Shown here: in pieces, positions 10,877 through 36,088 of the stretch
Layout of the letters: each line of letters begins with the position of its first letter
Numbering within the stretch: the first letter of the stretch is position 1
Source: Candidatus Latescibacterota bacterium
GTDB lineage: Bacteria; Latescibacterota; UBA2968; GCA-2709665
Reading direction: 5' to 3'
Assembly (NCBI GenBank): GCA_963662665.2
Contig: CAXXJS010000028.1
Location: 1-64,000, forward strand
DNA: 64,000 nucleotides
Made by a program: the position numbers and the translations under genes
The notes under the pieces: model-generated
Told to the model about the DNA's origin: nothing
What the model saw: the letters and a program-made list of their open reading frames with translations, nothing else
Database searches by the model: none

Positions 10877-12046
10877 CTACAGGCTGTCGCCGCGAACCGC
10901 AGCCACAACCGCTTCCGCCGCTTCTTTCAACTCGCGGGCGACCGTGAATTCAAGGTCCGAGTTCTCCAAAATCCTCGCGCCCGCTTCGGCGTTGGTCCCC
11001 TGCAGGCGTACCACGATCGGCAGGTCTACGGAAAATTCCTCCAACGCCTGGACAACACCCTCGGCGACCCGGTCGCAACGGACGATGCCACCGAAGATGT
11101 TGATGAGCACCGCTTTGACGCCGGCATCGGAAAGCAGGATACGGAAGGCGTTCCGAACGCGTTCCACGTTGGCGCCACCGCCCACGTCCAGGAAATTAGC
11201 CGGGGAAGACCCCGCGTATTTGACGATATCCATAGTCGCCATGGCAAGACCGGCGCCATTGACCATACAGCCGACCTCGCCGTCAAGCTTGATGTAGTTG
11301 AGGTCGAATTTGGAGGCGTCCACTTCCAGGGGGTCTTCCTCGTCGGTGTCGCGCAGTTCCAGGATATCTCCGTGGCGGAAGAGCGCGTTGTCGTCGAAGT
11401 TCATTTTAGCGTCCAAAGCCACCAGGCTGTCGTCTTCGGTGACCACGAGGGGGTTGATTTCGGCCAGGGAGCAGTCGGTGCCTGTGTAGGCTGCGTAGAG
11501 CCGGTCTATGAACCGCACACCCTGTTTGAACGCTCCTGACTCAAGGCCCAGACCGAAAGCCAGCCGGCGGGCCTGGAAGGGCTGAAGCCCTACCGCCGGG
11601 TCTATGGTCTCCCTCAGGATTTTTTCGGGTGTTTCGGCCGCCACTTCCTCGATGTCCATCCCACCCTCACGGGACGCCATAATGACCGGCCTGGAACGGT
11701 CCCGGTCCAATACCACGCCCAGGTAGAGTTCACGGGCGATATCGGTGGCGCTTTCGATCCACACCCGTTTGACGCGCTGCCCTTCAGGACCTGTCTGGGG
11801 GGTGACCAGATTCCGTCCGATCATGTCCCTGGCATATCCACAGGCTTCGTCCGGGTCCCGGGCGAGTTTGATGCCGCCGCCCTTGCCGCGGCCGCCCGCG
11901 TGGATCTGGGCCTTGACGGCGACGGCTCCGCCGAGTTCGGCCGCCGCGCGTCCGGCCTCGGCGGCCGTTGTCGCCAGGCGTCCATCGGGCACCGGTACGC
12001 CGTACGACTTGAGGATTTCCTTGGCCTGGTATTCGTGTATCTTCAT
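10877..12046 (-). CDS. sucC: Succinate--CoA ligase (ADP-forming) beta subunit
   Basis: [44 protein letters not shown]. Confidence 0.98.
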
Positions 12047-12080
12047 GGAGTCTCCTCGTGGGAGGGTCGTGGAGCGGATT

Positions 12081-13658
12081 TCAGCGCGTCTCTCTAAGGT
12101 CTTCTCCCGTCATGGCGTCCGGTTTCTGAAGGCCGAGCATGCCCAGAAGGGTGGGCGCAACGTCGCAGAGGCGGCCGCCGTTCCTCAGCCCGCCGCGAAA
12201 CGCCCGGTCGACAAGAATAAAGGGTGCGGGATTGGCGGTGTGGGCGGTGTGGGGTTCGCGGGTTTCGTGGTGAATCATCTGTTCGGCGTTGCCGTGGTCC
12301 GCTGTAACGATGGCCGCGCCGCCGACTTCGGCGATCGCAGCCAGGACCTGTCCCAGGCACTGGTCTACGGTCGCCACGGCTTCGACGGCCGCGTTGAACA
12401 CGCCGGTGTGGCCAACCATATCGGGGTTCGCGAAATTACAGATGGCGGCGTCGAAGCTCCTCGAGCGGATCGCGTCGACGAATTTTCGTGCCAGGACCCG
12501 CGCGCTCATTTCGGGCTTGTGATCGTAGGTGGGTACGTTCCTGGGAGAAGGGACGAGGATACGCGTTTCGCCTTCAAAAGGGTCCTCATGCTGGCCGTTG
12601 AAGAAATAGGTGACGTGCGCGTATTTTTCGGTTTCGGCGATGCGCAGTTGCCGGAGCCCGGCGTCGCTCAACGTCTTCCCGCAGACGTCCGGCATATCCT
12701 GGGCCAGATTTTCGGGCGAAAACGCAATCCCGTCCACGGGCAGGCCGGCTTCGTAACGCGTGAGGCACGTGTAGTGTGCCTCGGGGCGGGCTGCCCGCTC
12801 AAATCCGTCGAAACCCGGAAGTACGAAGGCACGGGTAATCTGCCGCATCCGGTCGCCCCGGAAATTGAAGCAGAGTACGGAATCGTCGTTCCGCACGGTC
12901 GCCAATGGACCCCCGTTTGGCCCGGCGATGACGATCGGCTTGACGAACTCGTCGGTTTCGTTGCGATCGTAGGCGTCCCGCAGGGCTTCGAACGGATCCC
13001 GTGCGCGCGTCCCCCGGCCGAGTGTCATGGCCTCGTAGGCCACGCGGACGCGGTCCCAGCGCAGGTCCCGGTCCATGGCGAAGTAGCGGCCGCAGACGGT
13101 GGCGATTCTGCCCACGCCGACCGACTCACACATTTCGTGAAGGGCGGTCAGATGGCGGATACCGCTTGTGGGCGGCGTGTCACGCCCGTCGAGCCACGCG
13201 TGGATGAAAACCTGATCCGGTCTCACCCGGCGGCCGGCGGCCATTTTGAGCAGACCGCTGTAGTGGTTGGGCCAGGAATGCACCCCCCCGTCGGACACCA
13301 GCCCGATCAGGTGGAGGCGCCGGTCTGTGCCGGCAACCCGGTCCATGGATGCAATCAGCGCTTCGTTCCGCGGAAAGCCGCCGTTCCTCACCCTGTCGTC
13401 GATCCGGGTGAGGGCCTGCATCACGACACGTCCCGCGCCCAGGTTGAGATGCCCGACTTCGGAGTTGCCGATCAATGGGTCGGGCAGACCAACGCTGCGT
13501 CCGTACGTCCGGAGAACCGTGGACGGGTACGTCGCGGCGATCCGGTCCATCGTTGGCGTATCGGCCAGCGCGACCGCGTTGTGGTCCTCGTTGGAGGAAA
13601 TGCCCCAGCCGTCGAGGACAATCAGGGCGACAAAACGTCGTTCCGGACAGGTCATCAC
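12081..13658 (-). CDS. gpmI: 2,3-bisphosphoglycerate-independent phosphoglycerate mutase
   Basis: [52 protein letters not shown]. Confidence 0.98.
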
Positions 13659-24614: not shown

Positions 24615-24690
24615 GCGCCCATAGCTCAATAGGCAGAGCAGCTGACTCTTAATCAGAAGGTTCGGGGTTCGATTCCCTGTGGGCGCACCA
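24615..24690 (+). tRNA. tRNA-Lys (anticodon CTT)
   Basis: GCGCCCA/TGGGCGC acceptor stem, TAGCTCAAT..GGCAGAGC D arm, CTCTTAA anticodon loop, GGTTCGATTCC T arm, encoded CCA; 76 nt. Confidence 0.97.
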
Positions 24691-24726
24691 GATTTCGGCC
24701 GTCTCATGCGACGGCCCGATGGCGAA

Positions 24727-24764
24727 GACAAGACCCCGATGGGCAATCCCGTCGGGGTCTTGTC
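24727..24764 (+). terminator. Strong hairpin downstream of tRNA-Lys
   Basis: GACAAGACCCCGATGGG-CAAT-CCCGTCGGGGTCTTGTC. Confidence 0.65.
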
Positions 24765-24839
24765 GTGTTATCCGGAATCGTGTTCCTGGCCAACGCGGAC
24801 GTCCACGCCCCGTCATCCAAAGATGTGGTGGCAATTCCA

Positions 24840-24868
24840 TTGATATTCGGACACAAATGTCCTATTTT
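24840..24868 (+). promoter_or_regulatory. Sigma70-type promoter with an operator palindrome, directly upstream of hicB
   Basis: TTGATA-17 nt-TATTTT, with GGACA-CAAA-TGTCC in the spacer. Confidence 0.65.
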
Positions 24869-24888
24869 CAAGAGGTATGGGAACTATT

Positions 24889-25338
24889 ATGCAATTTCGC
24901 TACCCCGCCCGGTTTCATCAGGATCACTCCGGCGAGATCACTGTCTCATTCCGGGATTTTCCGGAATGTCTCACGTCCGGTTCCAACGAGTCATCTGCGC
25001 TCGTGGAGGCCCGCGACGCGCTCGAGGAAGCGGTCGCCGGCCGCATTGACGATAACGAGCCCATCCCGGCGCCCAGTCGCCGACGCGCAGGCGAGCATTA
25101 CGTTGCCGTTCCACCCGATACGGCTGCGAAGGCCGCGTTCGCCATCGCGTTCCGGGACAGCGGTCTGTCCCGTCTTGCCGTTGCTCGTCACCTCGGCGTG
25201 AACGAGAAAGTCGTGCGCCGCATGCTTGACCCCCGTCACCACACCGCCGCCAACCGCATTCACAAGGCCCTGCGGTCGCTCGGGCGGGAACTGATCGTGG
25301 AGTTCCGCGCGGCTAACGGTGTTAGAGACCTCTCCTGA
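24889..25338 (+). CDS. hicB: HicB family antitoxin with a C-terminal HTH (no hicA adjacent)
   Basis: YPARF...VSFRDFPECLTSG...ARDAL...IPAPS, followed by an HTH (LARHLGV-like, VRRMLDPRH). Confidence 0.88.
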   Translation: MQFRYPARFHQDHSGEITVSFRDFPECLTSGSNESSALVEARDALEEAVAGRIDDNEPIPAPSRRRAGEHYVAVPPDTAAKAAFAIAFRDSGLSRLAVARHLGVNEKVVRRMLDPRHHTAANRIHKALRSLGRELIVEFRAANGVRDLS

Positions 25339-25756
25339 GCTACGCCATTTACGCTAGCGCGGCTTCGTAATGCTCAGCGGCAACCAAACAGGTGGCAACG
25401 AACGGGCGAGCCCAATTGATGTTTCAATCACTCCCCCCTTGAGGGGGAGTCGCAGAAGCCGAGTCCGTCCCCTGAGCAACTCGCCCTGAGCCTGCCGAAG
25501 GGGCCGACGAAGGCTGATGCGGAGGGGGGTTTCAATGCCTTACTGTAAACAAGCAGCGTGATTTAACATCTACGCATTTTGCGTTGATATCTTACTGTAG
25601 GGTCAAAACTGGCTTGCATGTTTGAAGCCTGTTCTTTTTTTGCCCACGCGCGTTAATTATTATCGATTTGAACCGTTTTCGCTAATAAGAAACCTCCTTA
25701 TCTCCACAGGCGAAAACAAGAGAAGGCCCTCGCGTCTGCAGATTTCTCTCCAGTAT

Positions 25757-25780
25757 GGCAGGTTTGAAACGTGCCCCTAC
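25757..25780 (-). repeat. GTAG-type REP element
   Basis: Reverse complement GTAGGGGCACGTTTCAAACCTGCC; an oppositely oriented relative lies at 27959-27982. Confidence 0.6.
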
Positions 25781-25922
25781 AGTCTCCTACGGTGCACCGT
25801 TTACAATGTGAAAATCCAGTCTCTTCTATATTTCCGTTTTGTGTTATATTGTTAGCGAACTGAACGGGCAACGCGTATTGGCGTCGTCGTTTTTCGCCCG
25901 ATTGAAATCATGGAGCGTACCG

Positions 25923-26190
25923 ATGAACCACAGTGAAATCGTCAGCTTTATCTGGGGCGTCGCGGATCTGATTCGCGACAGCTTCAAGCGAGGCAAGTAC
26001 CAGGACGTCATTCTGCCTCTGACCGTATTGCGGCGTCTCGACTGCGTGCTCGCGCCGACCAAGCATCAGGTACTCAAACGCCAGGCGGAACTGATACAAC
26101 ACGACCCCTCCCCGAAATCGATGCCGATATTCAGGCTATCGAAAAGACATACTGGATATGTTGAAGAATATATCCGGCTCAACGGCCTGA
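25923..26190 (+). pseudogene. hsdM: Type I restriction-modification M subunit, internally deleted
   Basis: N-terminus MNHSEIVSFIWGVADLIRDSFKRGKYQDVILPLTVLRRLDCVL is joined to a frameshifted HsdM-like C-terminus, RPLPEIDADIQAIE/DILDMLKNISG. Confidence 0.82.
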
Positions 26191-26214
26191 GCCACCAAGA
26201 GTATCTATGGAAAC

Positions 26215-26271
26215 TGCTTTGTGTGGTCGGATGCTGGGCCCGTAAATGTGGAAATCGTCGACTATCACTAA
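26215..26271 (+). pseudogene. higB: C-terminal remnant of a HigB (RelE/ParE) toxin
   Basis: Reads CFVWSDAGPVNVEIVDYH-stop, the typical HigB end, 22 nt before higA. No in-frame N-terminus. Confidence 0.8.
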
Positions 26272-26293
26272 CGACTAACCAGAGGTGCGAAAA

Positions 26294-26608
26294 ATGGTAC
26301 GTATTCCAACCAATCGTGTCCCGACTCATCCGGGTGAGATGTTACTCGAGGAATTTCTGAATCCCATGAATTTAACACAACGTGAACTGGCCACGGCCAT
26401 TCATGTTCCTTATCAACGGGTCAACGAACTGGTAAACGGTCGACGGGGTATCACTCCGAGTACAGCCCTGCGCCTGGGGAGATATTTCAACGTGTCGGCA
26501 GCGTTCTGGCTGAATCTGCAGCTACGTTGGGATCTGTATCACGCCACGCGGTCCGAGGCAGAGGAACTGGCGGCTATTTCGCCACGTAACATTGAGCTTA
26601 GCGTATGA
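26294..26608 (+). CDS. higA: HigA family antitoxin
   Basis: PTHPGEMLLEEFL..TQRELA..QRVNELVNGRRGITPSTALRL..FWLNLQ. Confidence 0.94.
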   Translation: MVRIPTNRVPTHPGEMLLEEFLNPMNLTQRELATAIHVPYQRVNELVNGRRGITPSTALRLGRYFNVSAAFWLNLQLRWDLYHATRSEAEELAAISPRNIELSV

Positions 26609-26756
26609 CGAGAACGGCTGAACGCTCATCAATTGATGATAGAGTTGACCTCAGCCTGGAAAGAGCTACTTACCGGGAACACGTCATAAACGGTAAAAAA
26701 ACATGACGTGTGGGTTTGCGCCGCAAACGAAGCGCTGGCCGACATGAGGAGGCGAA

Positions 26757-26969
26757 ATGTTGACTCAAAGATTGAAGGTGGCTGGCCTGCTGTCGTTCGG
26801 ACCCGACGGTGTAGACGTACCTATGGAACCGCTAAACGTCCTCATCGGCCCGAACGGTTCGGGAAAGTCGAACTTCCTTGAGGCAATTGCGCTATTGAAG
26901 GTCGCACCAACTGGCATAACGGATCCAATCTCGCGCACGGGGGGCGTTCAGTGCTGGAAAGATCAATGA
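26757..26969 (+). pseudogene. N-terminal fragment of an AAA/ABC-type ATPase
   Basis: LLSFG..LNVLIGPNGSGKSNFLEAI, then truncation after about 65 aa. Good AGGAGG SD. Confidence 0.8.
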
Positions 26970-27454
26970 CATCCGGATCCTCCGGTTTCCCGGTTTCCGC
27001 CGTGAGGGGCGTGGCCTCGGTCGCGCTACTGCTCGGCCTGCTTGCCGCGACCGGCTGTCGTGAATCGACGCTCGATCCGGGTGTCCCCGAAACCAACGTG
27101 GTAGTCGCCGACGGCCGCGACCGGGGAGACGACCCCTGGGTCGTGAACTCGGCCGCCATCGACGGACACCGGTTGACCATCGAAGTCTCGTTCGCCGGAG
27201 GCTGCCGGAGGCACGACTTCACGCTGGTAATCTCGAAATCGTTCATGGAGTCGGATCCGGTGCAACTTCAGGCCGTGCTCGCCCATAATGCGAACGGCGA
27301 TCTCTGCGAGGCATGGCTGACCGAGTCCCACGTCTTCGACCTCGCCCTGGTGAGGACGCGCTATCAGCAGTTCTACGGACCCGGTCCGGGCAAGGTCGTC
27401 CTTCGAATCGAGGGTGTGTCAGGCGCCGATCTCTTGTACGAATTCGACGGATAG
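26966..27454 (+). CDS. Lipoprotein, possibly with a NigD-like C-terminal domain
   Basis: Lipobox LAATGC; GGCRRHDF...HNANGDLCEA with a cysteine pair. Confidence 0.75.
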   Translation: MTSGSSGFPVSAVRGVASVALLLGLLAATGCRESTLDPGVPETNVVVADGRDRGDDPWVVNSAAIDGHRLTIEVSFAGGCRRHDFTLVISKSFMESDPVQLQAVLAHNANGDLCEAWLTESHVFDLALVRTRYQQFYGPGPGKVVLRIEGVSGADLLYEFDG

Positions 27455-27538
27455 CCACGGGCGGGTCGCTCAACTCGAAACCTGCAACTCCTGCATTCTA
27501 CCTACGAATGCGACGAGATCAGTCACATTCGTCGCGCG

Positions 27539-27817
27539 GTGATTCACCCTCACCAAATGGACAACGGATATGTTGCCTATGTTGCAACCGCTCCTTATTT
27601 TATTGAACGTCCGGAAGTGCAAATTGTCGACGGTAAGGAAGTCTGCGTGGTGAGTTGCCAGCGGAGTCCGGAACCGGTGTTTCTCTCGTGGAAGGGACTC
27701 GAAAAGGAAAACACAGGTGACTTTCTCGTGCGCAGCGGTCCGGGAACTGTGAAGCTCTCGCCCGACAGCGCCGGAGAATTCATCCGTACCCGGTTTCCGG
27801 GTTCAGGTGAAGAGTAA
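27539..27817 (+). pseudogene. Probable C-terminal fragment of a Schlafen/AlbA_2-type protein
   Basis: VDGKEVCVVSCQRSPEPVFL...FLVRSGPGTVKL..FIRTRF resembles AlbA_2 domain ends. N-terminus absent. Confidence 0.55.
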
Positions 27818-28071
27818 ACTTCGGTTTTTGCGAAGAATTCGTTATTAGCGTATTTGACCCTTGTCGCCAATAAGTGACATCCTTGTTATCACCGTCGCAA
27901 ATAACGCGCAGTTATGGCGAGGTGTATCGCTGGAAAAAAACGAACCGGGATACCGCCCGTAGGGGATGGTTTCAAACCTGCCCCTAACCTCCATACATCC
28001 GCGAATGCGGGGTTGAAACCTCCGCTGCCGATATGTATTGTTTATCCACGTCTCGATGAAAGGGCAATACG

Positions 28072-28269
28072 TTGAGCGCAAGGCGTAAAGCTGCAGCTCA
28101 TCGACGGCGCGAGGAACAGCAGCGTTCTCGCACATTCGAGTCGGTAGCGGATCTGGAGACGTTCTTTCGTGCGTGCGACGCGCTGGAGGGTCCCCAGCGG
28201 GAACCCGATTGGCATGAGCACCTGGCGGTCATCGATAAATCCCGCAGGAGGGGTACATCCAGCACGTGA
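28072..28269 (+). pseudogene. Degenerate small antitoxin-like (RHH/VapB-type) gene
   Basis: TLSAxxxAAA...FESVADLETFFRACDALEGPQREPDWHEHL recalled as an antitoxin-like C-terminus; in-frame stop just upstream. Confidence 0.4.
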
Positions 28270-28316
28270 TTATTCGTTTTCCGACATAACCCAAACCGGA
28301 GATTGCAAGCGTCGCG

Positions 28317-29681
28317 ATGTCAAATTTAAAACGCATTGAATCGTGTTCCCTCGACCGCATCAGGAGGATGAGAGACCTGGTCAGGAGGGAGACCGAGAAG
28401 ATTGACCGCCGGTTGGCCGAGGAAGAGGACAAGATCGGCCGTATGGCCGGAAGAGCGGACACGGTCGCCCTGAGCAAGAGGCATGGCCGCTACGAACTGG
28501 ATCTGGACAAGGCCGATTCGCGAATTTCAACGCTGAACGAGGAAAGGCAGGAGCTGGAGGACAAGGCCAGGATCATCGAGCAGGCCTTCCAGAAGAAACA
28601 TCTGATGGATAGGCAAGCCAGTGTACTGGGCAGCGTCCGGAGGGTTTACGCGAAGGACATCGTCATCTTCTTTCTCATTCTGTTTCTGATCTCGATCCTT
28701 GTCGTGGACCTTCTCGGCATCGGCGCCAGCGGAAGCGGCGCGACGGCAACGGCTGAAGTGGAAAAAGGGAAGATCAGCAAAATCACCATTTCGAAAGCGG
28801 GCGCAGGGTATGAACGCGTGAACATTCACATAGTGGATACGGCCGGGTCCGGCGCACTCGTTTCCGGGCACGTGACCGGAGGAAAATTGACGGGGGTGGA
28901 CATTGTAGACCGCGGGGGAAAATACAAAAAACCGGTTGTGGAAGTACACCCCCATTTCTCGGTCGGCACGTTGTGGATCCTCTGGATCATCGACGTGGTG
29001 TGCTGCACCATTTTCATGGCCAATTTCGTCTTCGAACACAAGCTTGCCGATTCCAAAAAGTGGTATTGGAAGAATAACTGGATCGACTTCATCACGTCCA
29101 TTCCGCTTCCCCCGGTGCAGGTCATCGCGGTTTCCGGCGACATCGGCGTCGTACGCCTGGGTCGGCTCCTGCGTGCCGTGCGGATTTTGCGGGCACTCAG
29201 ATTACTGCGCATCGGACTGTTTTTCTGGCGGGGCATGGACCACCTCAGCACAACGCTGGACGTGCGGCTTCTCAAGCGGTCCCTCCTCTATGGCCTGTTG
29301 TCGCTGGTTTTCGGCGCGTGCGTTTTCATGGGCTTGGAACACATGGAGTCCGGTTCCGGATTCTGGGAGAGCCTCTGGTGGAGCTTCACAACGCTTGTCA
29401 CCGGCGGCTACGCCGACATCCACAACCCCGAGACCGCCTCCGGAAGAATCCTCACGGTTTTTCTGGTGATTACCGGAATGGTTCTGGTGGGCGTCTTCAC
29501 CGCGACGCTGACGAGTATTCTCGTCAAGGAAGAGGACTCCATACAGGCCGAGGAACTTGAAGAACAGGTCGGTATGGTCACGAAAATTCAGGAAGAAATG
29601 AACAACGCCAACGAACGCCTGGACAGGCTGGAAGGCAGCATCCGCGAAATCCGGGACGCTGTCAAGGGCCGGGAGAATTAG
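28317..29681 (+). CDS. Voltage-sensor-type 6-TM cation (K+-like) channel with an inserted beta-repeat domain
   Basis: S3 NWIDFITSIP, Arg-rich S4 RLGRLLRAVRILRALRLLR, pore SLWWSFTTLVTGGYAD, N- and C-terminal coiled coils. Confidence 0.88.
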   Translation: MSNLKRIESCSLDRIRRMRDLVRRETEKIDRRLAEEEDKIGRMAGRADTVALSKRHGRYELDLDKADSRISTLNEERQELEDKARIIEQAFQKKHLMDRQASVLGSVRRVYAKDIVIFFLILFLISILVVDLLGIGASGSGATATAEVEKGKISKITISKAGAGYERVNIHIVDTAGSGALVSGHVTGGKLTGVDIVDRGGKYKKPVVEVHPHFSVGTLWILWIIDVVCCTIFMANFVFEHKLADSKKWYWKNNWIDFITSIPLPPVQVIAVSGDIGVVRLGRLLRAVRILRALRLLRIGLFFWRGMDHLSTTLDVRLLKRSLLYGLLSLVFGACVFMGLEHMESGSGFWESLWWSFTTLVTGGYADIHNPETASGRILTVFLVITGMVLVGVFTATLTSILVKEEDSIQAEELEEQVGMVTKIQEEMNNANERLDRLEGSIREIRDAVKGREN

Positions 29682-29684
29682 CCG

Positions 29685-30965
29685 ATCTCGCCATCCAGGA
29701 AGCACGATCCCTACGCGGCCTTCCGCATTCAAAACTACCGGCGTTACATTCTGGGCTGGTTTTTCGCCATTGTGGGCAACCAGATCCAGAGCATCGCGAT
29801 CGGCTGGGAGATCTACCAGCGCACGGGCCAGGCGCTCTCCCTGGGCCTGGTCGGGCTAGCCCAGGCCCTGCCAGCCATCCTGCTCGCCCTGCCCGCTGGC
29901 TTCCTGGCGGACAGATTCGATCGCCGCAGGGTGGTCATCTTCAGCATGCTGGGCACAACTCTGACGTCGCTGGCGCTCCTCGCACTCTCCATTGCGAAGG
30001 GGCCCATTCTCGTGATGTACGCGTTGCTGGCGCTGGACGCCACGGCCACGTGCCTGGGCCGCCCTGCCCGGACGGCCCTTGTGCCTCTGCTGGTCCCCCG
30101 CGACGTCTTCCCAATCGCCGTTACATGGAACACCAGCCTGATGCAGATGGCATGGGTCGTCGGCCCTGCCCTGGGCGGCTTTGTGGTCATGTTCAGCGTT
30201 CCAGCCGCCTACGCGCTCAGCGCGGCGAGCACACTGGTTTTCGTGATTCTGCTCACGCGGGTGGGTTTCCGGTCTGAGCCCGAAAAAGCGGAACCCGCTT
30301 CACTCACGACCGTGCTGGCAGGCATCCGCTACGTCTGGCGCACCCGCCTGATTTTTTCTCTGATGGCGCTGGATATGTTGGCCGTGCTGCTTGGCGGCGC
30401 CGTCTACCTGTTGCCCATCTATGCGGAGGACATTCTCCACGTCGGTCCCCAGGGCTTCGGCTGGCTTCGCGCTGCCCCGGGCGTCGGCGCCTTCTGCATG
30501 GCCATCCTCCTGGCCTACCTGCCGCCGATGCGGCGAGCGGGCCGAAACCTGCTGCTGGCCGTGGCCGGATTCGGCGCGGCCACCATCGTATTCGGCTTCT
30601 CTCAATCGTTCTGGCTCTCGCTGGCGATGCTTTTCCTCACCGGCGTTTTCGACAACGTCAGCATGGTCGTTCGACACACACTCGTCCAGCTGCTCACCAC
30701 CAACCGGATGCGCGGCCGTGTGCTGGCTGTCAACTACGTATTTATCGGCGCATCCAATGAATTAGGGGGGCTGGAATCCGGCCTGGTGGCCCACTGGTAC
30801 GGGCCGGTCGTGTCTGTGGTCAGCGGCGGCATCGGGACCGTCCTCGTGGTTCTCGGCACCGCAGCCGGCGCTCCCGGCCTTCGTCGCTTCGGCGCCCTCC
30901 ACGAAGCCCGGCCGGAGGAAGAGGACGAAGCAACGGGAGAACACGACCGGAAGGCGGAACCCTGA
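29685..30965 (+). CDS. MFS transporter (EntS/DHA3-like); start codon non-canonical or uncertain
   Basis: GFLADRFDRRRV motif A, GASNELGGLESG. The conserved N-terminal HDPYAAFR..NYRRY lies upstream of the first GTG (29772). Confidence 0.88.
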   Translation: MSPSRKHDPYAAFRIQNYRRYILGWFFAIVGNQIQSIAIGWEIYQRTGQALSLGLVGLAQALPAILLALPAGFLADRFDRRRVVIFSMLGTTLTSLALLALSIAKGPILVMYALLALDATATCLGRPARTALVPLLVPRDVFPIAVTWNTSLMQMAWVVGPALGGFVVMFSVPAAYALSAASTLVFVILLTRVGFRSEPEKAEPASLTTVLAGIRYVWRTRLIFSLMALDMLAVLLGGAVYLLPIYAEDILHVGPQGFGWLRAAPGVGAFCMAILLAYLPPMRRAGRNLLLAVAGFGAATIVFGFSQSFWLSLAMLFLTGVFDNVSMVVRHTLVQLLTTNRMRGRVLAVNYVFIGASNELGGLESGLVAHWYGPVVSVVSGGIGTVLVVLGTAAGAPGLRRFGALHEARPEEEDEATGEHDRKAEP

Positions 30966-31067
30966 AGACCTGGTTCGTGTTCAAAGATGTGGACGTACGC
31001 CAGACAAGACATCCGAGGTTTTGTGAATCCCATCTTCTTCGCGACTAAACCCTCTCCGTCGGTCCCC

Positions 31068-34046
31068 GTGCCGTTTCGGCTTGCGCTTCCCATAATGCTC
31101 CTGGTATTCGCCTTTTTAGTCGTACAGGCGGCAGCCCAGCAGGTCCCGCCGGACGAACCCTGGCGCACGCTCGAAACGGAACACTTCCGCGTCACCTTCC
31201 CGGAGCACCTGGAAGACCTGGCGCGCAGGGCAGCCGATAGCGCGGAATGGGCCCACGCCCGGCTTTCCGAACAGTTCGTACAGGGACCTCGTGGAACCAT
31301 CGATCTGGTCGTCACCGATCACATCGATGCATCCAACGGCTACGCGACCCGGTTTCCCTCCAACCGCATCGTCCTTTACGCACGGACACCGGTCGACAGT
31401 TTCCTGCTCGGCTATTTCGACGACTGGCTGGAACTACTGATCGTTCACGAACTGACGCACATCTTTCATCTCGACCGATCCGGACGGTACAGCGTTCGGG
31501 GACTGTTCGGACGGATACCGGTCCCCGTTTTCGGCTTCCCGGCAATCGCAACGCCCCTGTGGGTGATCGAGGGCATCGCCACCTGGTACGAGTCCGCGCT
31601 TACCGGCGAGGGCCGCGTTCTGGGAACCTACCACAACATGGTGCTCCGAACAGCGGCCCTGGAGGGTCGCTTCGAGTCCATCGGACAGGCAGGGGGATGG
31701 TCGTCGCAGTGGCCTGGGGGGCTTCGCGTGTACGTTTACGGATCTATGTTCTTCGAACACCTCATGCGCAAGTACGGCCGGGACCGGATGTCTGCATTCG
31801 TCGAAGCCGTAGAGGGCCAGTGGATTCCCTATCGTCTCGACGCCGCGGGAAGGAACGCCTTCGGCGCCAGCCTGTCGAACGAGTGGACCGCGTGGGCGAA
31901 CGGTTGGCGAACGGAGGCAGCAGAGCTCGACGCCCGCCTCGCCCGGATCGGGCCGGTCTCCCAACCCGAAAGGATGACCCATGGCGCCCGCTACGCGCTC
32001 CACCCGAAAGTGTCACCCGACGGCGGGATGTTGTCTTACATCCGATCGGACGGCAGATCGGACCGGAAACTCGTATCCGCCAGGCCCGGTGGCGGTGTCG
32101 AATCGACTCTCGCCCGGGTCTGGGGGAGCAACTTCGATTTCACACCCGGCGGGGACGTCCTCCTGGCCCAGTTCGAGTTCGCCGGGCCATACCGGCGGTA
32201 TAGTGACATCTACCGGGTGACCCGGGACGGCGTGATACAGCGGATGACCAACGGCGCGCGGCTGACCGCGCCTTCGGCCGGCCCCCGTAACCGGGCGGTT
32301 GCCGTCTCGGAAGGAGAGGGCACGAACGGACTTGCCCGCGTCAATACCCTTACCGGCGCCATCGAGACCCTGGTTCGCCCCGATGCGGGCGTCTACGGGG
32401 CGTTTCCGGCGGTGTCTCCCGATGGGAGGCGGATTGCGGCAACCCGCTGGAAGGGCGGGTACCACGACGTCGTCATCCTGGACGCTGACGGCAGCCTCGT
32501 CAGGCGTGTCACCAATGACCGTGCCATTGACTTTGCCCCCGCCTGGAGCGCCGACGGGCGGTGGCTGGTATGGTCGTCCGACCGGACCGGTATCCTGAAT
32601 GTTTTCGCCGCTCGGGTCGACAGTGGGCGGACAGAGCCGCCGGTCATGCTCACGAACGTCCGAACGGGCGCGGCGTGGCCCAGCGTGGACCCATTGGGGC
32701 AATGGCTCTATTTCTCGGGGTATCACGTGGACGGCTGGGAGATCGAACGCATTCCGTTCAATCCGGCCGCCGCGCCGCCCGCGCCTCCATACCCCGCCGA
32801 TTCAACGCGCACCGCGGCAGGCATGCTCGCGGCGGAAGTCGCGACGGCGGATAGAGGATCTCGCCCGCGCGCTGTCGGGCCGGTACGTGACTACTCACCG
32901 GTTCCGACACTCCTTCCCCGTTACTGGCTCCCCTTCGGGACGGTATCTCTCTCCGGAGCCGGAACGGACGCAACGCCGCGGACGAAGGTCCTCGGTTCGT
33001 CAGTCGGCGCCCTCACCTCCGGTGTGGACCTCGTGGGACAACACGCCTACTACGTGGGGGCCAGGATATTTCTGCCCGCTGGAGGATATTCGGGAGGGAG
33101 GGGGGCGGGCTTTCTTTCGTATCGGTACTCCGGACTCGGTAACCCCACGCTGAACGTGTCGACGTCTCAGAACTGGGATGAGGATCGAGTCAGGATGGGG
33201 GGGCGGAACGGCGACGCCCCGGCCGACACCATCTTCATCCTTGAACGTGCGCGCCGGGCCGTCCTGTTGATGACCCTTGCGCGTCCGAGGGCGTGGAGCG
33301 CGGTTTCATTCACGCTTTCAGGCGGCCTGTTGCGGGAGGACCGGGAGGCGCTGGATACGGAACTCAGGCCGGCGGATCTGCCGAAATACGACAGCCCTCA
33401 CAGCACCCTGGGGGAAATTGCGGCGGGTTTCTCGGCCTCCACCGCCAGGTCGCACGCGTTTCAGATGGGCAATGCCGCCGGCGCGTCATTCTCCGTGCAG
33501 GCGACGCGGCGGTTCGACGTCACCAGGGAGTCTTTGGACGACCGTTCCGTGGATGCCGTCTCCGGCGACTTCAGGACCTACGCGAAACTGCCGGGAGGCG
33601 GATTCGCGGCGCCCGTGGTGGCGCTCAGGACAAGCGCGGGCGCGGCGCGTGGACCGGATAGCGGGAGGGGCTACTTCAAAGTCGGGGGCATCGCGCGGCG
33701 CCTGTTTCCCGTTCGGGGGTACGAACACACGCAAAGATCCGGGCGGCGCGCCTGGGCCGCCACGCTGGAGTTACGCCTGCCGGCCGCGCTGGTCAACCGT
33801 GCCCTCGGAACGCCGTTGTTGCACTTCGACCGCGCCTCTCTCACGCTCTTCGCCGACGCGGGCAACGCCTGGGGGCGGGATAACTCGCCGCAGGGCACGC
33901 CCGAACCGCTCTTGTCCGCCGGCGCCGAGTTCGTCTACGATTTCGGCATCCTCTACCTTCCATTCCGCTTCCTCGCCGGCGCAGGATACGGGTTCACAGA
34001 CCCGAAGGGCGCCGTTCCCTACCTCCGCCTTGGGACTTCGTTTTGA
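31068..34046 (+). CDS. Outer-membrane protein: zinc-peptidase-like domain + PD40 beta-propeller + BamA/TamA-like barrel
   Basis: Signal peptide, HELTH...WVIEGIA, repeats PKVSPDG/PAVSPDG/PAWSADG, VRGY motif, C-terminal LRLGTSF. Start uncertain (30987-31095). Confidence 0.85.
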   Translation: MPFRLALPIMLLVFAFLVVQAAAQQVPPDEPWRTLETEHFRVTFPEHLEDLARRAADSAEWAHARLSEQFVQGPRGTIDLVVTDHIDASNGYATRFPSNRIVLYARTPVDSFLLGYFDDWLELLIVHELTHIFHLDRSGRYSVRGLFGRIPVPVFGFPAIATPLWVIEGIATWYESALTGEGRVLGTYHNMVLRTAALEGRFESIGQAGGWSSQWPGGLRVYVYGSMFFEHLMRKYGRDRMSAFVEAVEGQWIPYRLDAAGRNAFGASLSNEWTAWANGWRTEAAELDARLARIGPVSQPERMTHGARYALHPKVSPDGGMLSYIRSDGRSDRKLVSARPGGGVESTLARVWGSNFDFTPGGDVLLAQFEFAGPYRRYSDIYRVTRDGVIQRMTNGARLTAPSAGPRNRAVAVSEGEGTNGLARVNTLTGAIETLVRPDAGVYGAFPAVSPDGRRIAATRWKGGYHDVVILDADGSLVRRVTNDRAIDFAPAWSADGRWLVWSSDRTGILNVFAARVDSGRTEPPVMLTNVRTGAAWPSVDPLGQWLYFSGYHVDGWEIERIPFNPAAAPPAPPYPADSTRTAAGMLAAEVATADRGSRPRAVGPVRDYSPVPTLLPRYWLPFGTVSLSGAGTDATPRTKVLGSSVGALTSGVDLVGQHAYYVGARIFLPAGGYSGGRGAGFLSYRYSGLGNPTLNVSTSQNWDEDRVRMGGRNGDAPADTIFILERARRAVLLMTLARPRAWSAVSFTLSGGLLREDREALDTELRPADLPKYDSPHSTLGEIAAGFSASTARSHAFQMGNAAGASFSVQATRRFDVTRESLDDRSVDAVSGDFRTYAKLPGGGFAAPVVALRTSAGAARGPDSGRGYFKVGGIARRLFPVRGYEHTQRSGRRAWAATLELRLPAALVNRALGTPLLHFDRASLTLFADAGNAWGRDNSPQGTPEPLLSAGAEFVYDFGILYLPFRFLAGAGYGFTDPKGAVPYLRLGTSF

Positions 34047-34092
34047 ATCGGAATTAAACAAATACAATAGCGGGGATCTGGCGCCCGCACAC

Positions 34093-34131
34093 AAAAACCC
34101 CCCGGAGATTACTCTTCCGGGGGTTTGTTTT
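34093..34131. terminator. Bidirectional rho-independent terminator
   Basis: A-tract, CCCCCGGA/TCCGGGGG stem, T-tract, between convergent genes. Confidence 0.8.
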
Positions 34132-34200
34132 GCCGGCCCTGCAATTCTCAAACCCGCGCGCCGTGCTTAGATCATCTTCAAATCGACTCTACGGCAGCGA

Positions 34201-34458
34201 TTATCCGTGATCCACCTTGAGCGCATCCAGGTCGGCGTATTCATTCAGACCCGCTCCCGTACCTGCCCGCCGCATTGCCTCTTTGGTCTCGTCATTGGGA
34301 ATCCTTACCTCAAACGGCAAGCCGCCATACAAGGTAACTTGAGAGTAGAACAATGTGATCGCTTCTGTCGTGGATAGCCCCAGTTTTGAGAAAACCTCCT
34401 CGGCCTGGTGCTTCAACCGGGGTTCAACACGGGCCCGGATGAATTCCGTCTTTGCCAT
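34201..34458 (-). CDS. RelB/DinJ family antitoxin (no toxin adjacent)
   Basis: MAKTEFIRARVEPRLKHQAEEVFSKLGLSTTEAITLFYSQV..GLPFEVRIPN; GGAGG SD. Confidence 0.92.
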   Translation of the reverse strand: MAKTEFIRARVEPRLKHQAEEVFSKLGLSTTEAITLFYSQVTLYGGLPFEVRIPNDETKEAMRRAGTGAGLNEYADLDALKVDHG

Positions 34459-34480
34459 AGAAACCTCCGTATCTTCAAGA

Positions 34481-34500
34481 TGTATCACAAACGGGATACA
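34481..34500. promoter_or_regulatory. Operator palindrome upstream of the DinJ-like antitoxin
   Basis: TGTATC-N8-GATACA, overlapping a TTGCAT-N17-TACATC promoter-like sequence on the minus strand. Confidence 0.6.
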
Positions 34501-34582
34501 AATGCAACCGCTTCTTGCACCCAGCCGGAAACCCGACCTCAAGTTATTCATTCGCGGGCGTTTGTCATATCCACGCTGATGT

Positions 34583-35707
34583 TTAGTCACCTGTGCAGGC
34601 CGTTTCGTAAGTCCACTCTCGCCCAAACCCCTGTTGTTTTGCAATTGACATTAGAGGTATCAAGGTCTTGTGATACGCAGATTTCAAATCTTCGCGGTCC
34701 AGCGTTTGGTCTGCACAAATGAAGAGGTCCGTAGTGTACGGCTCGACGACCTTTTTCCATTTTTCGTCGCTCATACTGTCCCGTGCGATGGAAAGCGAGG
34801 TACTTTGGGTTTCAGCCAAACCGTCAATGTATTTCTCACATGGGATTTGGTCACTTTTTTTACTGTTCGCGTAGGAATCAGCGGGTATCAGGTTCCATAA
34901 CTGATCGTGCGCGACGAATCTCCATGGCAGGAAGTGATCCAATTCATAACCACAATCCAGTTTTTTCCCTGTGTAAATACACCGGATATCTGATTCACTT
35001 ATAGCTATATCCCAATACCTTCGCTGGACATTGAGAGACGCCCTCCTATCCGGCGGGAGCAATTTTCGCGTTACAGCGGGAATACCTGGATTCCGCCGCT
35101 GCATATAATCCGCCCAATTCCATAATGCCCATCCCTCGACAATCGTCTGATTTTGTTTCAAATAAGCAACCCACTCCGGATGCAAAAGGATACATTCCTC
35201 AGAATTGTCGAAACGGAAGAGAGGACGTCGTACACAAAATCGCTCGGCAGCGAGATTGAAAACTTCCCGGTTCACCCGTTGATCTGGCATGCCTCTGGTT
35301 TCTCCGGCAAAAAACGGCCGCAAAATCCGGTGGGGAACATAGCGCATCAATTCGTAATCCAGCACCTCATCACAACTGGCAAGGAGTTTGCGCAGTTTCT
35401 GACGCCCGGATTTGGGCAGCAGCTTTCGTTCATCATCGATTTGGGGAATCGATCGCAAAGCTGAGGCGATTTTATCCTGAGTGCCGAATGACAACTTGAA
35501 AAAAACATGAGGATACCATGCAGTAACCAGCATCTCAACTTCTATATCCCTCAATAGAATGCCGTCACCAGTCTCAAAACGCCTGTCCTTTAACAAAGTC
35601 AGCAACGCGAAGAAAAATAGATATTTGTATGAATTTGTCGTATGCCTGAACAAACCGCTCAGAGTTGCGATATCCAATCGATCGGAATGTGGTAATTGTT
35701 GATTCAT
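34583..35707 (-). CDS. HNH endonuclease domain-containing protein
   Basis: TTNSYKYLFF N-terminus, CIYTG...LDHFLPW..HDQLWNLIP...NSKKSD. Visibly lower GC than its flanks. Confidence 0.88.
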   Translation of the reverse strand: MNQQLPHSDRLDIATLSGLFRHTTNSYKYLFFFALLTLLKDRRFETGDGILLRDIEVEMLVTAWYPHVFFKLSFGTQDKIASALRSIPQIDDERKLLPKSGRQKLRKLLASCDEVLDYELMRYVPHRILRPFFAGETRGMPDQRVNREVFNLAAERFCVRRPLFRFDNSEECILLHPEWVAYLKQNQTIVEGWALWNWADYMQRRNPGIPAVTRKLLPPDRRASLNVQRRYWDIAISESDIRCIYTGKKLDCGYELDHFLPWRFVAHDQLWNLIPADSYANSKKSDQIPCEKYIDGLAETQSTSLSIARDSMSDEKWKKVVEPYTTDLFICADQTLDREDLKSAYHKTLIPLMSIAKQQGFGREWTYETACTGD

Positions 35708-36088
35708 TAAGGATCAATCCGATCGGTGAACGGATGGATTATTTGGAACTGAGCAGAAACAATGGGATTTGGCGCACCACGATACCGATGGCGCGTGGTG
35801 TACAAAGGCGTCGTGAATGTCGCAAAATGCGACGTACCGTTCTATCGTACGTTGCGGCATTGTCGTTGTCAATGTGAATCCATATGGGAAAACTGGCGCC
35901 CCTGCACACCTGTAATCAGGGATTCTTTTTTGTTCCGGGCGGAGGTTTACGGTATATTTATCTCTTTCGGATTCGGCAAGCCTGCACCGACCCTTCGACA
36001 GGCACAGGGAGCGGTGCAGGATTCAGTCGCATTTCCTGGATGATTTCGGAGCGGGAGCTTTTCTTCTGTCTCCTTTCCGGGAGAAGGA

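Follow-up and report, generated by a model that had tools for sequence, protein, structure and literature searches.

Background

The closest described relatives of the protein reported here are the voltage-gated potassium (Kv) channels KvAP (structures 6uwm, 1orq and 2a0l), Kv2.1 (8sda) and the Kv1.2-2.1 chimera (2r9r). The subject of this paper is a related channel gene, P0001, which lies at 28317-29681 of a 64,000-nucleotide stretch (the window) of contig CAXXJS010000028.1 from a Candidatus Latescibacterota bacterium. Like KvAP and the Kv channels, its product has six transmembrane helices, an S4 helix with arginine at every third position, putative countercharges in S2 and S3, a pore helix with two adjacent tryptophans (WW) and the filter residues T, G, Y and D; its C-terminal helix aligns with those of KvAP and full-length KcsA. 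Unlike them it carries an 82-amino acid (aa) beta module in the S1-S2 loop, an N-terminal coiled-coil region of ~105 aa, the filter TGGYAD rather than TVGYGD, and one extra residue before the conserved proline (DIHNP). The distance to KvAP is about 51 bits (E 1e-12) at the profile level.

The beta module has its own described counterparts in the repeats of phage virion proteins. The two share the motif GSGA..V..G.I..I.I...G.GY..P.V.I. with three strands per unit, and two consecutive phage units superpose on the insert with a template modelling (TM) score of up to 0.86. They differ in number and setting, since the phage proteins hold up to dozens of units in fibre or decoration proteins whereas there are two units here, in the loop of a membrane protein; moreover, the first unit of the insert has a conserved YERVN in place of ..P.V... 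A mechanistic parallel, without homology, comes from the CaV1.1/1.2 channels, in which, according to a review (PMC13661669), the alpha2delta-1 subunit docks on the S1-S2 loop of voltage sensor I. The likeness is the use of an extracellular S1-S2 loop as a sensor-modulating interaction surface; in the CaV channels a short loop receives a subunit encoded apart from it, whereas here the folded domain belongs to the loop itself.

In the literature searched we found no experimentally characterised member of this channel family; full-text searches gave no paper with the motif TGGFGD or TGGYAD, and as far as titles and abstracts show, no such insert has been described for the S1-S2 loops of prokaryotic voltage-gated channels. 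What is new is a domain graft, undescribed in that literature, in a known channel architecture, together with a family-wide non-canonical filter; within the same limits a prokaryotic voltage sensor with a folded domain in its extracellular S1-S2 loop is apparently described here for the first time. The explanation that we prefer, with a probability of about 0.62, is that the gene encodes a chromosomal, tetrameric, Kv/KvAP-type cation channel which uses its periplasmic module as a binding or anchoring surface and serves the cell's own membrane physiology.

The channel

Coordinates of the gene and its parts are collected in Table 1. The start codon of the reading frame is common to all 32 aligned homologues. 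Pfam Ion_trans matches residues 220-402 at 6e-16 (58.8 bits, against a cut-off of 25), which places the protein in that family; Ion_trans_2 (1.9e-11) and, more weakly, Lig_chan match as well. When a profile of the 32 homologues was searched against the PDB, KvAP 6uwm was the top match (E 1.3e-12), followed by Kv2.1 and the Kv1.2 chimeras. On these grounds the product is assigned to the Kv-type, six-transmembrane voltage-gated channels, in agreement with an earlier note on this DNA, which had been made without database searches. That note had also pointed to the run of arginines in S4: there are seven (R280, R283, R286, R289, R292, R295 and R298), each invariant in the 32 homologues. The S4 helices of most full-length family representatives contain 5-12 arginines or lysines, the low counts being two in P0154, which is apparently frameshifted, and four in P0216, a canonical outlier.

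Alignments show D226 and D257 of S2/S3 to be invariant throughout the wider family. F233 is aligned to the S2 phenylalanine of Kv2.1, and three residues on, at a position that is D or E in many relatives, this channel has N236; by the naming used for Kv1.2 these would be the putative countercharge and charge-transfer positions. Residues 1-105 can be aligned in relatives that have no insert, so that this region is kept family-wide. At the other end of the protein the profile alignment extends over the C-terminal helices of KvAP 6uwm and of KcsA in its full-length structures (3pjs/3eff), and the channel's own helix likely forms a tetramer bundle. A scan of 27400-30000 for promoters and terminators gave a signal no higher than in shuffled sequence. 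Among six RNA runs, none was listed as containing the locus. Two further channels, both with the canonical TVGYGD, are encoded in the window's genome (L045 and L046, at C14:18905-19369 and C44:5123-5692, in open frames of 400 and 267 aa).

The periplasmic insert

The Ion_trans match starts at model position 33, in S2, in this channel and at position 5 in P0129, a family member without the insert, which reveals 82 extra residues between S1 and S2. In the standard Kv topology the N-terminus lies in the cytoplasm together with the K-rich S2-S3 loop, so that the S1-S2 loop faces outward; the insert is accordingly placed in the periplasm. Only 2-3 residues on either side connect it to S1 and S2. 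The earlier note had seen two tandem repeat copies in this loop and read them as a grafted module, and both points were borne out. Units 1 and 2 share 12 of 36 residues by BLASTP (E 2e-5 as a single comparison) and the pattern GSGA..V..GK[IL]..[IV].I...G..Y; the pattern goes beyond chance, because the unit recurs in two other proteins, P0135 and P0122, described below. Folded alone with AlphaFold2 (AF2) from 23 homologous inserts (41-87% identical), the insert gave a confident model of six strands, three per unit, with a predicted local distance difference test score (pLDDT) of 89.7 and a predicted TM-score of 0.78. Pfam returned no family for it, even at E 10, and neither did NCBIfam, and the window's genome holds no further copy of the repeat module.

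The insert is well conserved. Over 23 sequences, with identity down to 41%, seventeen of its columns are invariant, most of these positions being structural Gly, Tyr or Pro. Mean pairwise identity is 66.7% in the insert, 66-70% in the cytoplasmic tails and 89.5% in the S2-S6 core, so that the insert evolves no faster than the tails. Seven residues outside the repeat consensus, E147, E166, R167, N169, D174, E209 and H213, are invariant or nearly so in the 32-homologue alignment, which suggests them as a candidate functional surface.

Relationship of the insert to phage virion repeats

The earlier note had linked the Gly-rich repeat to phage structural proteins, and profile and fold comparisons both agree. 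Searched against PHROG, the 84-aa insert alone matched 17 families at E≤10 and eight at E≤2e-4, led by phrog_701 (6.9e-8), phrog_19630 (3.5e-7), phrog_2885 (8.4e-7) and phrog_708 (1.5e-5). Seven of the eight are labelled either "virion structural protein" (701, 19630, 4406) or "baseplate wedge subunit" (2885, 708, 719, 438); phrog_22827 bears a function-unknown label. A Foldseek search of the insert model against the predicted structures of BFVD gave 16 matches at E≤1e-3, with query-normalised TM-scores of 0.70-0.86, root mean square deviations of 0.9-2.8 Å and 23-33% identity. The matches are domains within large proteins, among them those of Synechococcus phages S-ShM2, S-P4 and ACG-2014d ("structural protein") and Stenotrophomonas phage Mendera, with the Bellamy "baseplate wedge initiator", the S-RIM32 "neck protein" and a protein of Agrobacterium phage Atu_ph07 lower in the list. 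The phiM9 "tail sheath monomer" is also in the BFVD list (TM 0.60).

Among solved structures the picture is fainter. Foldseek found none in the PDB at E≤1e-3 with the insert model, and a wide VIA-align search gave no clear solved match, its best Z of 3.6 being shared with many Ig/FN3-like chains. A link to tail sheaths on the basis of solved structures was dropped, T4 gp18 and the Klebsiella phage sheath reaching only Z 2.9-3.0. The best score in the ESM Atlas, 0.77, is below the level at which we would take up a lead; the two top clusters there are viral.

Two proteins show the repeat in other settings. P0135 (3161 aa) is the sole non-channel protein among the best 150 of an exhaustive whole-protein search of 1.84 billion representatives. 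It is a long tandem array of a ~38-40-aa unit in which 23 separate stretches match residues about 138-214 of the channel (E 1.7e-59); it has no Pfam family and matches phrog_701 at 1.4e-126. P0135 lies on a 108-kb metagenomic contig whose viral nature could not be confirmed, and its PHROG matches are the one pointer to a viral origin, since scans of IMG/VR with patterns from the insert alignment, the family alignment and P0135 gave no relatives; these scans used few exact peptide patterns and are weak negatives. In P0122, the single match in a word-based search for longer proteins with the insert, the repeat stands beside a subtilase domain (29/77 identities, E 3e-12); the repeat is thus not exclusive to phages, and units of this type also make up long arrays in some cell-surface proteins. 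Compared with the phage ~38-aa beta-repeat proteins, then, the insert agrees in sequence (PHROG) and in fold (BFVD), and differs in that two units within a cellular channel take the place of a long tandem array in a phage-encoded virion protein. The channel shares a domain with the phage repeat families and is not itself a member of them. It represents a phage-virion-type repeat reused in a cellular membrane protein.

The pore filter

Residues T362-G-G-Y-A-D367 are aligned to the TVGYGD of KvAP and Kv2.1. Both threonines, the first glycine, the tyrosine and the aspartate are retained, but Gly stands in the place of Val and Ala in that of the second Gly, so that T359-L-V-T362-G-G364-Y-A366-D departs from the canonical K+ signature T-x-x-T-x-G-[YF]-G-D with its two glycines. 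At position 366, 28 of the 32 close homologues have Ala and four have Pro; across the wider family this residue is Gly or Ala. Among the 150 representatives from the exhaustive search the filter reads TGGFGD in 37, TGGFAD in 24, TGGYAD in nine and TGGYGD in two; a further 30, in the distant tail of the list, have TVGYGD, 41 (mostly fragments) have no motif, and six are singletons. Since TGG[FY][GA]D is found throughout the family, the odd filter is, on these alignments, a family-wide trait and not peculiar to this channel. The earlier note had correctly read TTLVTGGYAD in place of TVGYGD, and this departure is a signature of the whole family. With Val and the second Gly replaced, we file the protein as a cation channel of the Kv superfamily and not as a proven K+ channel; its selectivity is probably for cations, with an uncertain leaning towards K+.

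The wider channel family

A word-based search gave 329 proteins at E≤1e-3. The 120 close homologues listed among them are all 437-460 aa long and at least 69% identical over at least 96% of the query, and the insert is present in all 32 that were aligned. In the exhaustive search 5250 proteins reached E≤1e-3, and 78 representative clusters passed the stricter threshold of E≤1e-30. When 25 representatives were aligned, they proved to have in common the N-terminal coiled-coil region, helices S1-S6 with the pore signature SFTT.VTGG[FY][GA]D[IL][HY]NP, and the C-terminal helix; by these features the channel belongs to a wider, undescribed bacterial family with coiled coils at both ends. The source annotations of its members read "ion transporter" or "potassium channel family protein" only, and the commonest label among the nearest Atlas clusters is Planctomycetota. 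A sizeable uncharacterised family with the filter TGG[FY][GA]D is of interest in itself, as its selectivity would bear on what the Val and the second Gly contribute in TVGYG. Three members, P0165, P0176 and P0182 (526-539 aa), have a C-terminal extension of ~190 residues past the channel, conserved among the three.

S1-S2 loop lengths were compared in 66 full-length representatives (at least 330 aa). The loop is 12 residues or shorter in 54 and 17-20 residues in four; the phage-type module, in a loop of 82-88 residues, is confined to six (P0001, P0029, P0124, P0125, P0126 and P0154). The loop is thus usually short, as the earlier note had stated for such channels, and the module, far from being common in ordinary homologues, marks one subclade of the family. 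Family members without the insert, such as P0127 and P0129, have S1-S2 loops of 3-12 residues and are otherwise alike, with the N-terminal region, S1-S6, TGG[FY][GA]D and C-terminal helix in place and 37-51% identity over S2-S6. P0127 (Roseibacillus persicicus) is sister to the insert-bearing P0126 in a quick tree, with a support of 97 in the Shimodaira-Hasegawa-like approximate likelihood ratio test (SH-aLRT), a placement that hints at loss of the insert; the branches are long. Two other representatives carry S1-S2 loops of unrelated sequence, 72 residues in P0196 and 32 in P0151, which makes this loop a hot spot for modules.

Of 43 related insert-bearing loci, 40 are in metagenome-assembled genomes (MAGs) labelled Candidatus Latescibacterota or Gemmatimonadota, and L001 is labelled "uncultured bacterium". 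One MAG labelled Pseudomonadota has two insert-bearing paralogues, L038 and L040, on separate contigs and 54% identical to the window's channel; one of the two adjoins an AAA_11/AAA_12 helicase gene. The insert-bearing P0125 is from a Verrucomicrobiales MAG.

Neighbouring genes

To the left of the channel lies a variable region that begins at a tRNA-Lys gene (Table 1). The earlier note had described a decayed defence and toxin-antitoxin (TA) region beside a tRNA, and the annotation bears this out, with remnants of HsdM, of an HsdR-Schlafen (HsdR-SLFN) fusion and of a HEC-01A ATPase, and a HicB-like open reading frame (ORF) just past the tRNA. The remnant that directly precedes the channel is 74% identical in protein to the intact HsdR-SLFN gene of locus L029 (5703-9857), and 79% identical in DNA over 27641-27795. 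In effect the window holds recognizable ruins of a type I restriction-modification (R-M) system next to a channel gene that reads as intact.

Table 1. Positions of the channel gene, its parts and its upstream neighbours in the window
Feature	Position	Strand	Residues	Remarks
tRNA-Lys(CTT)	24615..24690	+		Left edge of variable region; ARAGORN
Variable, decayed island	24691..28316			Pfam, PADLOC
HicB-like antitoxin ORF	24877-25338			Just past tRNA-Lys; Pfam
HsdM_N fragment	25839-26360			PADLOC MTase_I, 2.5e-22
HTH_3 ORF, HigA-like	26285-26608			Pfam
AAA_21/HEC-01A ATPase fragment	26757-26969			70 aa, Walker-A end; PADLOC 1.7e-23
Lipoprotein-like ORF	26951-27454			167 aa, signal LLAATGC; without Pfam or PADLOC family
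HsdR-Schlafen remnant	27539-27817			92-aa ORF; 3'-end remnant (last ~60 codons) of the fusion gene
Channel gene P0001	28317..29681	+	1-454	454 aa plus stop; ORF list, translation
N-terminal helical/coiled-coil region	28317..28631	+	1-105	Cytoplasmic; AF2 helices 12-45, 62-104
S1 transmembrane helix	28632..28715	+	106-133	AF2 helix 107-133; hydrophobic; covered by Ion_trans in P0129
S1-S2 insert, periplasmic	28716..28961	+	134-215	82 aa; six-stranded beta module (AF2)
Repeat unit 1	28728..28841	+	138-175	Strands 143-149, 152-160, 167-173
Repeat unit 2	28842..28955	+	176-213	Strands 181-187, 190-198, 207-213
S2 and S3	28962..29132	+	216-272	S2 about 216-243; alignments
S4 voltage sensor	29148..29216	+	278-300	Seven Arg, every third position
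Pore helix and filter	29361..29429	+	349-371	W354, W355; filter at 29400-29417, then IHNP
S6 inner helix	29442..29528	+	376-404	Pfam Ion_trans/Ion_trans_2 end at 402-403; block nearly invariant
C-terminal helix	29529..29678	+	405-454	Cytoplasmic; AF2 continuous helix 376-453

The gene neighbourhood was compared over the 43 loci. Ten of these, all from the window's genus, have a major facilitator superfamily (MFS) transporter and a PD40/Omp85-like protein downstream of the channel, and upstream a stretch that differs in length from locus to locus and separates MoaC/tRNA-Lys from the channel; the distance from the channel up to MoaC is 2.2-4.4 kb in six of the ten and exceeds 10 kb in others. 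Elsewhere formate-tetrahydrofolate ligase (FTHFS) is directly upstream (23/43), a pyridoxal phosphate (PLP)-dependent decarboxylase and a TonB-dependent receptor follow downstream (26/43), and FtsY and QueG are found farther downstream (22/43); seven loci have none of these neighbour sets. Within family f4 the synteny around the channel is stable. An HsdR-SLFN homologue is found upstream of the channel in three of the 43 loci: the intact gene directly upstream in L029, and homologues, complete or partial, in two loci from the window's genus, L004 and L041.

Several smaller observations concern the island and its counterparts. The HicB-like and HTH_3 ORFs are 84-93% conserved in sister genomes. 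DNA 74% identical to the AAA_21/HEC-01A fragment is present in L029 (3635-3832), and the 167-aa lipoprotein-like ORF, inside the variable island, has 84% protein and 92% DNA identity to a stretch of L005. In L029 the PLP-decarboxylase downstream of the channel (11372-12571) is broken in two pieces, with residues ~237-386 gone.

Distribution and history of the gene

Within the phylum the gene was found in 49 of 168 genomes, each time as one full-length match without stops. It is carried by 13 of 14 genomes of the window's own genus (g1), by all genomes of genera g21 (3/3) and g23 (2/2), by 26 of 31 in g25 and by four genomes of g31. The other genera of family f1, to which g1 belongs, lack it (0/7 genomes). 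In the only g1 genome without a match, a putative absence, MoaC lies 3.6 kb from a contig end. Over the five genera the channel is single-copy and 68-91% identical.

In a quick tree the g1 sequences form a clade beside g21+g23, within the diversity of family f4, with modest support (SH-aLRT 85). The junction between the HsdR-SLFN 3' end and the channel is common to the window's genus (f1) and to L029 (g23, f4). This shared junction, the lack of the gene in other f1 genera and the tree together suggest, with moderate strength, that the channel entered the window's genus along with the R-M island at tRNA-Lys. No attachment (att)-type direct repeat of the tRNA-Lys 3' end was found between 24400 and 31200. 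In genera of the same family without the channel MFS and MoaC are far apart, and no empty site is definable.

Proposed function and alternatives

In the explanation that we favour, a cellular cation channel with a periplasmic binding or anchoring module, the protein would be a tetramer, gated by voltage and conducting cations, as its homologues are. As in other Kv channels, depolarisation would displace the seven-Arg S4 and open the gate at S6. The module, sitting atop the voltage sensor, would offer a periplasmic surface that binds or anchors to envelope glycan, peptidoglycan or a partner protein, and such binding may position the channel or bias its voltage sensor. The gene would serve the membrane physiology of its own cell; its neighbour in the window's genus is the decayed tRNA-Lys-linked R-M/TA island, along with which it may have come. 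The channel would be a small natural model for the coupling of an external binding event to a voltage sensor. As the 87-residue module should express easily, binding studies are within reach and could also illuminate the phage repeats.

Several observations weigh against this explanation. The gene is patchy, unlike a core gene, being confined to five of 49 genera, with 0/70 genomes in 12 other families. In two genera from different families the channel has the same HsdR-Schlafen R-M gene as its upstream neighbour, which implies that it has been carried along with defence genes or has come to lie next to them more than once. Among the 43 loci there is no conserved neighbour gene that points to a partner for the module. 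The module's place on the sensor is deduced from linker length alone. Similarity to phage proteins is weak at the level of single sequences, tblastn against 50,697 phage records giving one match at E≤1e-3, a virion structural protein of Sinorhizobium phage Phosso (E 5e-4). Finally, the full-length AF2 monomer model is poor at the pore (pLDDT <50 over residues 310-417), too poor for any statement on the filter.

The earlier note had proposed an anti-phage role by depolarisation, in which the repeats would recognise virion, baseplate or sheath proteins or envelope damage, whereupon the channel would open, the membrane potential collapse and the infection be aborted. In its favour are the module's homology to repeats found in virion, baseplate and neck proteins, the patchy distribution and the position of the channel directly downstream of HsdR-Schlafen, in the window's genus and in L029 of another family, with TA and ATPase fragments near by. 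The channel itself, however, matches no family of PADLOC-DB 2.0 at E≤1e-3, where only fragments of its neighbours do (MTase_I, HEC-01A), and over the 43 loci it has no consistent defence-island location, its neighbours being purely metabolic or housekeeping in 23-26 of them (FTHFS, PLP-decarboxylase, TonB-dependent receptor). Within the carrier genera the gene is nearly universal and single-copy, and its strongly conserved S2-S6 core is at odds with the diversification usual in defence sensors. In the window the R-M genes have decayed and the channel is intact, the wide occurrence of members without the insert argues for a cellular role of the channel core, and an S4 with seven arginines favours voltage as the primary stimulus. 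The gene looks like a long-kept chromosomal gene rather than an anti-phage gene, and we consider the anti-phage role improbable. A stricter version, in which a one-protein abortive-infection channel uses its virion-derived module to bind matching repeats or an envelope receptor at tail engagement, overrides the sensor and depolarises the cell, seems to us more improbable still; were it true, the lineage would have retained an abortive-infection channel long after the neighbouring R-M genes decayed.

Two other alternatives leave defence aside. The module might be passive decoration, a ligand-free beta structure that stabilises or spaces the sensor, or shields the loop from proteases, and that persists because its removal misfolds the protein. 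The tolerance of this loop for the unrelated inserts of P0196 and P0151 agrees with that idea, and so do an evolutionary rate equal to that of the cytoplasmic tails and the prevalence of structural Gly, Tyr and Pro among the invariant positions; but the seven charged or polar residues listed above speak against it, suggesting as they do a functional surface, and the module has been kept in channels about 40% to 91% identical under several phylum labels, so that we hold this to be unlikely. A possibility to be taken more seriously, if still tentative, is that the channel is island cargo with a niche role unrelated to the phage ancestry of its module, spread horizontally among co-occurring lineages and not vertically kept. 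The restriction to a single genus of f1, the placement of its clade inside f4 diversity and the junction shared with L029 all point this way, as do relatives 40-54% identical that are labelled Pseudomonadota and Verrucomicrobiales. The support of the tree is modest, however, no att-like repeat of the tRNA end accompanies the island, and synteny is stable inside f4; moreover, this account concerns history and not mechanism, and is compatible with the cellular channel that we prefer.

Other genes downstream

Two genes to the right of the channel may be recorded. The 1019-aa product of 30987-34046, conserved beside the MFS transporter in the window's genus, contains a PD40 repeat and has a weak Omp85-type match at its C-terminus. 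The reverse strand at 34583-35707 encodes a protein of 373 aa that contains an HNH_4 domain and weakly matches the HNH region of Cas9; its gene lies in a low-GC stretch (34001-36000, GC 0.49), and sister genomes have it, 70-76% conserved, downstream of their PD40/Omp85-like gene.

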